Below, one piece after another: positions 5,351 through 8,698 of a stretch of 12,350 bases of DNA. Within the stretch, counting starts at the first letter, position 1. Every line of letters begins with the position of its first letter. The notes below the pieces were generated by a model, which worked only from the letters and a program-made list of their open reading frames with translations, searched no databases and had not been told where the DNA came from. The stretch is from a virus (Duplodnaviria; Heunggongvirae; Uroviricota; Caudoviricetes): IMG/VR virus record IMGVR_UViG_2534681699_000012; one strand, written 5' to 3'. The translations under genes and the position numbers were made by a program.

Positions 5351-8300
5351 ATGGCAGTAAAGATTTCAGGTGTACTGAAAGACGGCACAGGAAAACCGGT
5401 ACAGAACTGCACAATCCAGCTGAAAGCAAAACGTAACAGCACCACGGTGGTGGTGAACACGCTGGCCTCAGAAAATTCGGATGAAGCCGGGCGTTACAGC
5501 ATGGACGTTGAGTACGGTCAGTACAGCGTTATTCTGTTGGTGGAAGGATTCCCGCCGTCACATGCCGGGACCATCACCGTGTATGAAGATTCCCGACCCG
5601 GTACGCTGAATGATTTTCTCGGTGCCATGACGGAGGATGATGCCCGTCCGGAGGCTCTGCGCCGTTTTGAACTGATGGTGGAAGAGGTGGCGCGTAACGC
5701 GTCCGCGGTGGCACAGAACACGGCAGCCGCGAAGAAGTCAGCCAGTGATGCCGGCACATCTGCCCGTGAGGCGGCAACCCATGCGACTGATGCTGCAGGC
5801 TCAGCGCGTGCAGCCAGCACGTCAGCCGGACAGGCCGCGACTTCGGCTCAGGAGGCGTCTTCCAGCGCAGGAACGGCATCAACAAAGGCCACTGAAGCAT
5901 CAAAAAGTGCTGCCGCTGCAGAGTCCTCAAAAAGCGCGGCGGCCACCAGTGCCGGTGCGGCGAAAACGTCAGAAACGAATGCTGCAGCGTCACAAAAATC
6001 AGCAGCCACTTCTGCATCCACTGCGACGACGAAAGCGTCAGAAGCCGCCACTTCAGCCAGAGATGCGGCGGCCTCCAAAGAGGCGGCAAAATCATCAGAA
6101 ACGAACGCCTCCACAAGCGCCAGCAGTGCAGCCTCCTCGGCAACGGCGGCAGGAAATTCCGTGAAGGCGGCAAAAACGTCCGAGACGAATGCCAGGTCTT
6201 CTGAAACGGCAGCGGAACAGAGCGCCTCAGCTGCGGCAGACTCTGAGACAGCAGCTGCATCATCGGCCCGTGAGGCGTCCATTAAGGCAGAGGAGGCAGC
6301 AGTCAGTGCCACCGCCGCCGGAAAATCGGCAGAAAGCGCCGCATCATCCGCTTCAACAGCCACAACGAAGGCTGGCGAAGCCACTGAACAGGCCACTGCA
6401 GCAGCGAGGGCTGCTTCCGCAGCGAAGACATCCGAAACGAACGCGAAAGCGTCGGAAACCAGCGCAGAATCCTCAAAAACGGCTGCCGCATCGTCCGCCA
6501 GTTCGGCGGCGTCATCGGCATCATCTGCGTCTGCTTCAAAAGATGAGGCGACCAGACAGGCGTCAGCAGCGAAGGGCAGCGCCACGACGGCATCCACGAA
6601 GGCGACAGAGGCAGCTGGTAGTGCGACAGCGGCAGCACAGAGCAAAAGTACGGCAGAATCCGCAGCAACGCGCGCTGAGACAGCGGCAAAACGTGCAGAG
6701 GATATTGCATCCGCCGTGGCGCTTGAGGATGCGAGCACGACGAAAAAGGGGGTAGTACAGCTCAGCAGTGCGACCAACAGCACGTCTGAAACGCTGGCGG
6801 CAACGCCAAAGGCAGTAAAAGCAGCCTATGACAATGCAGAGAAACGTCTGCAGAAAGACCAGAACGGTGCTGATATTCCCGACAAGGACCGCTTCCTGAG
6901 TAACATTAATGTTTACAGCAAAGGTGAAGTGGATCAGAAAAAGGGGATGCGATACGTTGTGGTAAATGCCCCGGCGGGGGTCCAGGAAGGTAAATATTAT
7001 CCGTTAGTGATAAAAAGGAATGACAGCCATCGGGCATCCCGCGTTGTCATTTCAACGCCAAGTCGCTCAGCTAATCACAGAATGAATAATTGTGAGTTTA
7101 ATGGTTTTGTTTGCGCAGGCGGCTGGACGGACCGGGGTAGCTATGCCTGTGGTATGTTCTGGGCTTATTCATCATCGGAACGCGCTATTCATTCCATTCT
7201 GATGAGTAATAAAGGCGATACCGTAGACAGCGTATTCTATATAGAAGGTGGGGCATTTCCCGTAGAGGTCTTTTTAGAAGAAGGTCTCTCCGTTACTGCA
7301 CCTGCTTCTGATTATATTGTTGCTGAAACGACTTATAAATTTGGCGCAACTGATCCTTATTCTGAATCAGTTGCGGTAAATTTAATTTTAGATTTTAAAC
7401 AAGGTAATGGATTTTATAGTTCGTATCCTGTTTTGAGTAAGTCAGACATTAGCGGGAATAAGATTTACGCTAATGATGAAGTTATTGTCCGTAGTCAGAA
7501 CGCGTTAAGGATGATTGCAGGTGATTACGGTGTCATATGGCGAAATGATGGAGCAAATACTTACTTGCTCATGACTGATAAAGGCGACCAGTACGGTGGC
7601 TGGAACGGTCTTCGACCATTTGCAGTAAATAACGCAACAGGTGAAGTGACGATCAATACACCACTTAATTCTCCTAAGGGGATTAAGGGAAATTCTGATA
7701 CAGCTACGAAACTTCAGACAGCAATAAAAATATCTGGTGTTTCGTTTGATGGTTCTACTGATATCACTTTAACCGCTGCGCATGTTGCTGCTTTTGCCAG
7801 AAGAGCAACGGATACGTATGCCGATGCGGATGGGGGCGTTCCCTGGAATGCCGAATCAGGCGCTTACAATGTCACTCGCTCTGGCGACAGCTATATTCTG
7901 GTTAACTTCTATACCGGAGTCGGAAGTTGCCGGACCTTGCAGATGAAGGCGCATTACAGAAATGGTGGTCTGTTCTACCGTTCTTCAAGAGACGGTTATG
8001 GTTTTGAGGATGACTGGGCAGAAGTTTATACCTCGAAAAATCTTCCACCAGAAAGCTACCCAGTCGGCGCACCAATCCCGTGGCCATCAGATACCGTTCC
8101 GTCTGGTTATGCCCTGATGCAGGGGCAGACTTTTGACAAATCTGCTTACCCGAAACTTGCAGCTGCTTATCCGTCAGGCGTGATCCCTGATATGCGTGGC
8201 TGGATGATTAAGGGCAAGCCCGCCAGTGATCGAGCCGTATTGTCTCAGGAACAGGACGGCATTAAATCACACCCCCACAGCGCCAGCGTATCCAGTACGG

Positions 8301-8698
8301 ATTTGGGGACGAAAACCACATCGTCGTTTGATTACGGCACTAAATCCACGAATAACACTGGTGCGCATACCCATAGTGTTAGCGGTACGGCTGCTTCAGC
8401 CGGTGCACATACCCATTCGATGACATTTGTTTCAGGTGGTTCCAGTGGTGCTCCGGGAAGTGGATCACCTGATTATTCTAAATACAGTGTTAACACTTCT
8501 TCTGCAGGCGCTCATACGCACTCTGTATCGGGTACTGCTGCAAGCGCAGGTGCACACGCGCATACTGTCGGTATTGGTGCTCATACGCACTCCGTTGCGA
8601 TTGGTTCACATGGACACACCATCACCGTTAACGCTGCTGGTAACGCGGAAAACACCGTCAAAAACATCGCATTTAACTATATTGTGAGGCTTGCATAA
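5351..8698 (+). CDS. stf: Side tail fibre protein (Stf-like), chimeric: conserved N-terminal anchor, Ala/Ser/Thr-rich shaft, His-rich distal tip domain
   Basis: Long ORF after lom, as for lambda stf. N-terminus [19 protein letters not shown] at 5351 preferred over the in-frame GTG at 5345 used by the ORF track. Long low-complexity shaft, and C-terminal GAHTHS-type repeats typical of phage tail fibre tips. Stop overlaps the tfa start (TAATG). Confidence 0.85.
5700..6730 (+). repeat. Low-complexity Ala/Ser/Thr/Glu/Lys-rich coding repeat region inside stf (fibre shaft)
   Basis: About 340 codons dominated by GCN/TCN/ACN. Recurring peptide motifs such as AKTSETNA and SAAAS, read directly from the translation. 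Generates spurious long ORFs in other frames on both strands. Confidence 0.7.
8340..8640 (+). repeat. His-rich G-A-H-T-H-S tail fibre repeat block at the Stf C-terminus
   Basis: Repeated peptide units [40 protein letters not shown] and [15 protein letters not shown]; the DNA copies are diverged. Resembles the HxH phage tail fibre repeat of lambda Stf and T4 gp37. Confidence 0.6.

Follow-up and report, generated by a model that had tools for sequence, protein, structure and literature searches.

The stf-tfa locus

The window analyzed here, a 12,350-nucleotide (nt) stretch of DNA from the IMG/VR virus record IMGVR_UViG_2534681699_000012, corresponds to the tail end of an Escherichia coli lambdoid prophage, as indicated by its list of open reading frames (ORFs) and their Pfam matches. 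The genes run in the order K, I, J, lom, stf and tfa, with appY and ompT adjoining, based on the ORFs, Pfam and the match to E. coli strain ET474. The side tail fibre gene, stf, lies on the plus strand 3' of J and lom (5351..8698), is of the Rac StfR type and encodes 1115 amino acids (aa). It is followed on the same strand by tfa (8698..9282), whose 194-aa product matches the Pfam family Caudo_TAP (PF02413, E 3.8e-44) and is a tail fibre assembly chaperone. The stf ORF is intact; its ATG at 5351 agrees with the start in all homologues, and its TAA stop codon at 8696-8698 shares one base with the tfa ATG (TAATG, read directly). It is very probable that the two genes encode an intact Rac-StfR-type side tail fibre and Tfa of a lambdoid prophage and that the fibre is a serial multi-junction mosaic, of a kind known for a long time.

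The best E. coli match to the window is strain ET474, at 97.7% identity over 99% of the length. The gene order in ET474 is identical and adjoins appY-ompT-envY, which is the DLP12 site in K-12. The annotated order J, lom, stf, tfa is likewise the same in ET474, lambda and phage Turner.

Modular organization of Stf

Read from its N-terminus, the protein consists of a lambda-type anchor, an Ala/Ser/Thr shaft, a junction motif, a 412-aa medial extension whose parts resemble P1 S, T4 gp34 and Mu S, and a tip of T4-gp37/lambda type. All modules given below lie on the plus strand. The anchor (aa 1-134; 5351..5752), the part for fibre-to-tail attachment, matches the Pfam family phage_tail_N (PF08400, E 5e-71), and its first 94 residues match the side-fibre collar of Ur-lambda (PDB 9E7M/9MGH, E 2.5e-50). 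Its DNA is 90% identical to that of lambda. Anchors of the PF08400 type are confined to siphovirus fibres, namely those of lambdoid phages, Stx phages, Gifsy, Nonagvirus and some Serratia phages.

The Ala/Ser/Thr-rich shaft (aa 135-454; 5753..6712) is delimited by its composition (37% Ala, 23% Ser and 13% Thr) and is ~100 aa longer than the shaft of lambda. Tandem Repeats Finder returned no arrays in the shaft, where just one loose 29-nt family was seen; the region has a biased composition and is not a regular DNA repeat. Two antisense ORFs on the minus strand, at 5574-6263 (229 aa) and 5848-6783 (311 aa), run across it and are almost certainly artefacts of GCN/ACN/TCN-rich periodic sequence; the annotated orf206b of lambda occupies the equivalent place.

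A conserved junction motif (aa 455-489; 6713..6817) follows, which aligns with lambda aa 361-385 and at which the homology to lambda stops. In a PDB sequence search aa 441-521 match Mu S (PDB 5YVQ). The medial module beyond it (aa 490-901; 6818..8053) has no lambda DNA or protein match and contains the trough in G+C content (GC) described below; related sequences are found in P1 S, Nonagvirus Stf, T5-like lateral fibres and T4 gp34. At its core is a variable cassette, V1 (6860..7730), within which aa 655-758 (7313..7624) form a T4 gp34-like trimerisation domain (Pfam Gp34_trimer, PF21446, E 3.6e-30). Consistent with that assignment, aa 701-792 match the T4 gp34 structures PDB 4UXE and 5NXF. 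A Mu S-like domain (aa 812-906; 7784..8068) aligns with residues 322-415 of Mu S/S' (PDB 8JU3), shows a weak Pfam gp37_C match (E 7.5e-6) and stands just before the tip; its DNA is 94-99% identical in Rac, Turner and one P1-like phage.

The receptor-binding tip (aa 902-1115; 8054..8695) is of the T4 gp37 type, with a collar, an HxH needle and a head loop. Residues 900-1115 match PDB 2XGF (E 7.8e-86) and are homologous to gp37 residues ~811-1026; Pfam places Collar (PF07484) at aa 906-953. The tip carries seven HxH motifs that align with the seven of T4 gp37, where they coordinate metal. A second variable cassette, V2 (aa 1004-1062; 8360..8536), includes the head loop, which is Gly/Ser-rich and, at 24 residues, unusually short. 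It is shorter than and unlike the loops of lambda, T4 and Rac. V2 maps onto the gp37 specificity region of T4, aa 932-965 (PMC9659904).

Comparison with lambda

By blastn, four segments of the window align with lambda (nt 5159-6258 at 87%, 6564-6819 at 82%, 8066-8344 at 85% and 8549-9331 at 92%), and nt 6258-6564, within the shaft, have no lambda counterpart. Composition-corrected blastp aligns aa 1-352 at 80% identity and aa 903-1115 with lambda residues 530-774; for the first ~305 aa taken by themselves, identity to Ur-lambda Stf is 80%. An uncorrected blastp alignment of aa 1-526 with lambda 1-526 was set aside as a low-complexity artefact stretched by Ala/Ser/Thr sequence. A reading of the gene as lambda stf with a simple 375-aa insertion was also dropped, as corrected blastp and blastn break at aa ~489 and nt 6819, respectively, and there are ~100 extra shaft residues. 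Relative to lambda, the medial module is thus a replacement, with 412 aa (aa 490-901) in place of an unrelated 143 aa (lambda aa 386-528). After their differing medial modules, the two proteins rejoin at the start of the tip.

Ur-lambda Stf shares with this protein the anchor, the shaft, the junction motif, the gp37-type tip frame, the C-terminal sequence and the gene order J-lom-stf-tfa. It differs in having ~100 aa less shaft, eight HxH motifs, one additional SFDYGTK repeat and a head loop that is considerably longer. Over aligned positions the tip is 75% identical to that of lambda, and the last ~50 codons of stf together with tfa are 92% identical in DNA. By sequence, the tip and the chaperone are of lambda's own type and not foreign, and the real difference lies in the medial module and the small tip loop. 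The proposal in a first-pass annotation of this DNA that stf is a chimera with a lambda-like N-terminal anchor and an Ala/Ser/Thr shaft is borne out by the lambda, Pfam and PDB matches. Working engineered chimeras of the lambda side tail fibre (STF) have been fused at R393 and S528 (PMC11338833), the places of the two natural junctions found here.

Independent reassortment of two cassettes

Stf is colinear with StfR of the K-12 Rac prophage, a single blastp alignment joining aa 1-1115 to 1-1120 at 83.6% identity. StfR/TfaR and the present pair share the anchor, the shaft, the junction motif, the Gp34_trimer medial module and the gp37-type tip with seven HxH motifs, and Tfa is 97% identical. 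The Rac locus differs in its V1 allele, at 48-69% DNA identity, in its distinct V2 head loop and in the pin invertase located 3' of tfa, which has no equivalent here; moreover, the present prophage is at the appY-ompT (DLP12) site and not at the Rac site. Stf is 97.8% identical to the Stf of the ET474 prophage and 94.5% identical to that of phage Turner. Across the whole stf-tfa pair, Turner and PhiR30_1 are 94-96% identical in DNA (PhiR30_1, 95.9%), and they differ in a V2 head loop distinct from that of this gene. In PhiR30_1, which is nearly identical otherwise, stf is annotated as three separate ORFs (2032-5425 of the compared locus) and so is interrupted, which recalls the stf frameshift of laboratory lambda PaPa.

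The borders of V1 and V2 were set from sliding DNA identity to relatives. V1 (nt ~6860-7730) is 98-100% identical to Turner, PhiR30_1 and ET474 and 48-69% identical to K-12 Rac stfR; V1 alleles are just 48-77% identical to each other between flanks that are at least 94% identical. V2 (nt ~8360-8535) matches ET474, ATCC 8739 and LFB1-1-1R at 98-100% (ET474, 100%), and its identity with Turner, K-12 Rac and PhiR30_1 is 41-65%. With four more prophages added to the comparison, all combinations of the two cassettes are seen. ET474 has both alleles found here; Turner and PhiR30_1 have this V1 with another V2; ATCC 8739 and LFB1-1-1R have this V2 with another V1 or none; and K-12 Rac and G749 have other alleles of both. 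Throughout the lambdoid loci compared, lambda included, tfa is 95-99% identical. Given the four combinations and the near-constant tfa, the distal half of stf is not one co-inherited unit. What tracks with tfa is the conserved tip frame, above all the last ~60 stf codons. Among 5426 complete E. coli genomes, 526 (~10%) carry the V2 allele, counted as at least 80% of nt 8280-8530, and the full medial segment is present in 152 complete E. coli genomes.

Along the window ET474 is 99-100% identical from nt 6326 to the end of tfa and 81-93% identical in the shaft at nt 5726-6300. The latter stretch is a tract of recombination or gene conversion in its own right, located within the low-complexity shaft.

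Relatives beyond lambdoid phages

Parts of the pair have relatives in phages of other kinds. The P1-like myovirus vB_EcoM-Ro157c2YLVW matches nt 7688-8344 at 94.7% and nt 8561-9260 at 89%, with a different V2 in between, and P2-like phages match nt 6824-6952 at about 91% DNA identity. For V1, the DNA relatives are Nonagvirus phages HdK1, JenK1 and 9g and P1 variants, at 65-68%, and the protein relatives are T5-like lateral fibres and Aeromonas T4-like fibres. In the virulent Nonagvirus siphovirus HdK1 (Queuovirinae) the fibre is colinear over aa 111-1115 at 48% identity (3445-7111 of the compared locus), and the lambda-type anchor is split off as a separate small upstream ORF.

The S fibres of P1 and Mu (PDB 5YVQ, 8JU3) resemble Stf in the junction motif and in the Mu S-like domains at aa 441-521 and 812-906. 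One P1-like phage shares the pre-tip segment, the tip frame and tfa at 89-95% DNA identity, and a P1 variant has a V1-like segment that is 66% identical over 177 aa. Unlike Stf, the P1 and Mu proteins are myovirus baseplate fibres without a lambda-type anchor, and they are switched by an invertible segment that is absent here.

In T4, gp37 (PDB 2XGF) matches aa 900-1115 end-to-end at 69% identity, with seven HxH motifs and an identical C-terminus. The differences are in the head loop between HxH 3 and HxH 4, in a DNA identity of ~69% (T-even gp37 genes range from about 69 to 72% against the tip) and in the rest of the fibre, which is unrelated to gp37. The T4 fibre is also split into gp34 to gp37, unlike the one polypeptide found here, which has a gp34-like domain as well. 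The chaperone gene directly 3' is a gp38 homologue. Tfa shares 94% identity with lambda Tfa, 97% with K-12 TfaR, 89% with the Tfa of a P1-like phage and about 30% with T4 gp38. In line with part of the first-pass annotation, a fibre tip and its chaperone do move jointly among unrelated phages, as the 2XGF match and the gp38 identity indicate.

Base composition along stf and tfa

Composition is not uniform across stf, as the sliding-window check confirmed. GC measured in 300-nt windows is 0.57-0.64 across nt 5551-6900, falls to 0.37-0.47 over nt 6900-7800 (lowest, 0.37, at 7201-7500) and is back to 0.49-0.53 over nt 7800-8700, with 0.46-0.51 in tfa. Total GC is best divided in two at nt 6808, with 0.596 before and 0.472 after, and the chi-square of 55.8 for this division compares with a maximum of 20.9 in 200 codon shuffles; the shift is far beyond chance. 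A shift had been placed near nt 6950, which is real and within about 150 nt of the best split, although the high GC of the proximal part proved to be largely an amino-acid effect visible at second codon positions (GC2). In the shaft GC2 is 0.78 and GC at third codon positions (GC3) is 0.50. The GC2 change-point is at nt 6698 (0.69 to 0.49, chi-square 49), and the drop in total GC is largely one of GC2 because the 74% Ala/Ser/Thr shaft stops there. Over nt 5700-6900 the shaft also has a strong positive AT skew of 0.36-0.44 (A far above T on the coding strand), which stops at the shaft end.

Segmentation of GC3, done on proper codons since tfa is in a different frame from stf, yields three blocks: 0.541 over nt 5351-6985, 0.318 over 6986-7807 and 0.453 over 7808-9279, where the remainder of stf and tfa lie. 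Each of the two splits is beyond the 99th percentile obtained by shuffling, with a chi-square of 24 for the trough against a 99th-percentile null of 13. A second local dip, to 0.27, is at nt 8360-8536, where the tip frame around it has 0.51 (p 0.002). For its part, the medial module (aa 490-901) has a GC of 0.443 and a GC3 of 0.381, compared with 0.540 for the proximal part (Fisher p 2e-6). The pattern is two-layered, with the amino-acid bias of the shaft raising GC2 and V1 and V2 having genuinely low GC3. The low-GC state is a trough and not a plateau, followed by an intermediate level through tfa, so the AT-richness does not simply persist through tfa as first supposed. In lambda, stf and tfa show a similar mild gradient from the proximal part to the tip to tfa (GC 0.57, 0.52 and 0.49) without the trough. 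The V1-like stretch has a GC of 0.445 in HdK1 and in a P1 variant, equal to their ~0.45 surroundings, whereas V1 here has a GC of 0.42 within a tail region of 0.55-0.60. This would fit a lower-GC phage pool as the reservoir of the module, and it gives no direction or date of transfer.

Alternative explanations

The first-pass annotation envisaged a single junction near nt 6950, with a lambda-like N-terminal half joined to a distal half that came with tfa as one unit from a non-lambda lineage. The GC and GC3 splits at nt 6808 and 6986 are near that point, GC3 is lower after the split (0.32-0.45) than before it (0.54), and the anchor is found only in siphovirus fibres while P1-like, P2-like and T4-like phages, too, have the tip and Tfa. 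However, Tfa is 94% identical to that of lambda, the 3' end of stf and tfa are 92% identical to lambda in DNA, the tip frame is lambda-type and lambda's own tip and tfa have a like GC (0.52 and 0.49). V1 and V2 also reassort independently of each other and of tfa. In a same-lineage test set beforehand, both halves were best matched by Turner, PhiR30_1 and E. coli prophages, at 94-98% over the whole gene. A single junction is thus very improbable, and acquisition of the distal half and tfa as one foreign unit is not supported. At the other extreme, the change in GC could be a mere by-product of an Ala/Ser/Thr shaft followed by ordinary beta-structured domains, with no compositional mosaic. That the largest step is in GC2 and that the shaft has a GC3 of just 0.50 are consistent with this view. 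However, GC3 is largely free of amino-acid constraint and still shows the significant trough of 0.318 at nt 6986-7807, the proximal and medial parts differ strongly, and the position of the trough is that of a cassette for which lambda has a replacement and Rac a version of about 60% identity. We consider a purely amino-acid origin extremely improbable.

The mosaic might instead have been made, or still be switched, by an invertase of the Cin/Gin/Pin type acting at crossover sites, as in P1, Mu and e14. In close relatives such a gene directly follows tfa (Rac has pinR, ATCC 8739 has pinQ and Turner has a DNA invertase), a V1-like sequence is located between cin and the U/U' genes in a P1 variant, and invertases have been proposed to drive stf exchange (PMC3945230). 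In the window, by contrast, there is no recombinase gene, and tfa is followed by a methyltransferase gene, a direct-orientation tfa remnant and appY. There is no inverted alternative cassette in it either, the sole second tfa fragment being direct and decayed, and the breakpoints fall in long stretches of 90-100% identity, as homologous exchange predicts. A scan for crossover sites with an unvalidated consensus was negative for the window, but it was negative for the P1 loci as well and so is a weak test; an inverted-repeat search in related loci defined no sites. An invertase origin is therefore very improbable. A diversity-generating retroelement was also considered as a source of V2 and rejected, there being no reverse transcriptase or template repeat in the window. 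Another reading has two independently exchangeable specificity determinants, the V2 loop and V1, the latter as a second, lateral receptor-binding domain and not a spacer, with the cassettes coming from lower-GC virulent and P1-type phages. Its basis is that V1 relatives are found in the variable part of the P1 S gene and in T5-like lateral fibres; we regard it as unlikely.

Several observations weigh against the serial mosaic that we favour. The divergent V1 allele of K-12 is also low in GC3 (0.39), so low GC is a property of the module and not proof of recent import, and composition alone gives neither the direction nor the timing of cassette transfers. Residues 490-655 have no Pfam match, and a PDB profile search built on a 16-sequence alignment added nothing there. 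The AlphaFold2 monomer of aa 520-905, from a 16-sequence alignment, is poor, with a mean predicted local distance difference test score (pLDDT) of 45. Lastly, what can be said of the expression, assembly and receptor of the fibre from this gene pair is based on homology.

Predicted assembly and receptor binding, and cassette exchange

Ur-lambda Stf has a collar, a gp37-like tip and OmpC as receptor, and its trimers sit on a dodecameric tail collar and make adsorption faster (PMC12617516). By homology with Ur-lambda Stf and T4 gp37, the present fibre would assemble as trimers anchored to the tail collar by the N-terminal domain, with the Ala/Ser/Thr region as shaft and the medial module lengthening the fibre; the role of its HxH motifs and its receptor binding are likewise predicted from these homologues. 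Translation of tfa is coupled to that of stf, and Tfa would fold the trimeric tip into a gp37-like needle. The head loop at the end of the tip would contact the surface receptor (OmpC for lambda, PMC12617516), and the fibre would bind its receptor reversibly, speeding adsorption before J engages its own receptor. The region from HxH 3 to HxH 4 is the proposed specificity determinant in the gp37/Stf tip family (PMC9659904), and by analogy the V2 head loop is likely the specificity determinant here. As this loop is unlike those of lambda, T4 and Rac, specificity may differ, and the receptor cannot be predicted from sequence. A host range different from that of lambda, as suggested earlier, is thus possible, although for a reason other than the one claimed.

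V1 and V2 are exchanged between the fibres of lambdoid, P1-like, P2-like, Nonagvirus and T-even phages, probably through homologous recombination in the conserved flanks. Recombination between lambda and Rac in stf-tfa has been shown experimentally (PMC3945230). Beside the domain identities, breakpoints, codon-position composition and independent cassette reassortment observed here, the mechanism of recombination is most simply taken to be homologous exchange.

Flanking genes and remnants

A strong terminator-like hairpin is located between lom and stf at 5313-5334, 17 nt before the stf ATG; its stem has 8 pairs, of which 7 are G-C, and a run of T comes after it. Expression of stf-tfa presumably needs antiterminated late transcription. 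Upstream on the plus strand are J (1222-4620) and lom (4687-5286), with the K-like and I genes 5' of J, all assigned from ORFs and Pfam. J has a composition step of its own, from a GC of 0.63 at nt 2850-3450 to 0.46-0.50 at nt 4050-4650, in the 3' third of the gene (3300-4620); GC3 goes from 0.74 in aa 1-700 to 0.60 in aa 701-1132. This step is in the receptor-binding C-terminal part and probably reflects the same kind of module exchange as in stf.

On the other side of the pair, a S-adenosylmethionine (SAM)-methyltransferase gene (9337-10005, minus strand; ORF and Pfam) has a lower GC of ~0.42. Beyond it, tblastn found the decayed 3' end of a second tfa, a tfaX-like remnant on the plus strand (10140..10319), which is 73% identical to Tfa aa 132-191, has an internal stop and corresponds to a partial tfa pseudogene in the ET474 annotation. 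A 157-nt direct repeat of 83% identity (9106-9262 and 10155-10311) brackets the minus-strand methyltransferase gene. The remnant suggests a trace of an earlier fibre-end replacement or of a cargo-gene insertion. The arrangement at 9106-10319 presumably mirrors the tfaD-ybcY-tfaX-appY remnant of DLP12 in K-12. NCBIfam matched no family to Stf, Tfa or the methyltransferase. Further on, appY (10868-11617; ORF and Pfam) is preceded by a very AT-rich stretch that also covers its start (nt 10350-11100, GC 0.23-0.30), far under the GC of the prophage tail genes.

Implications

The shuffling of tail fibre modules seen here is already-known biology. Descriptions of tail fibre segments and chaperones being exchanged as modules between lambda, P1, P2, Mu and T-even phages go back to around 1990, and this gene, which belongs to the well-populated StfR type, carries little weight as a discovery. 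The locus also illustrates that, where amino-acid composition is extreme, total GC alone misplaces module borders. If V1 should also bind a receptor, the reassortment of V1 and V2 would give a combinatorial host range. Modular fibre exchange is now used to engineer lambda STF chimeras at both of the junctions seen here (PMC11338833). What engineers and annotators gain in practice is a clean map of the modules in this allele, showing the ~60 codons that most likely set receptor specificity.

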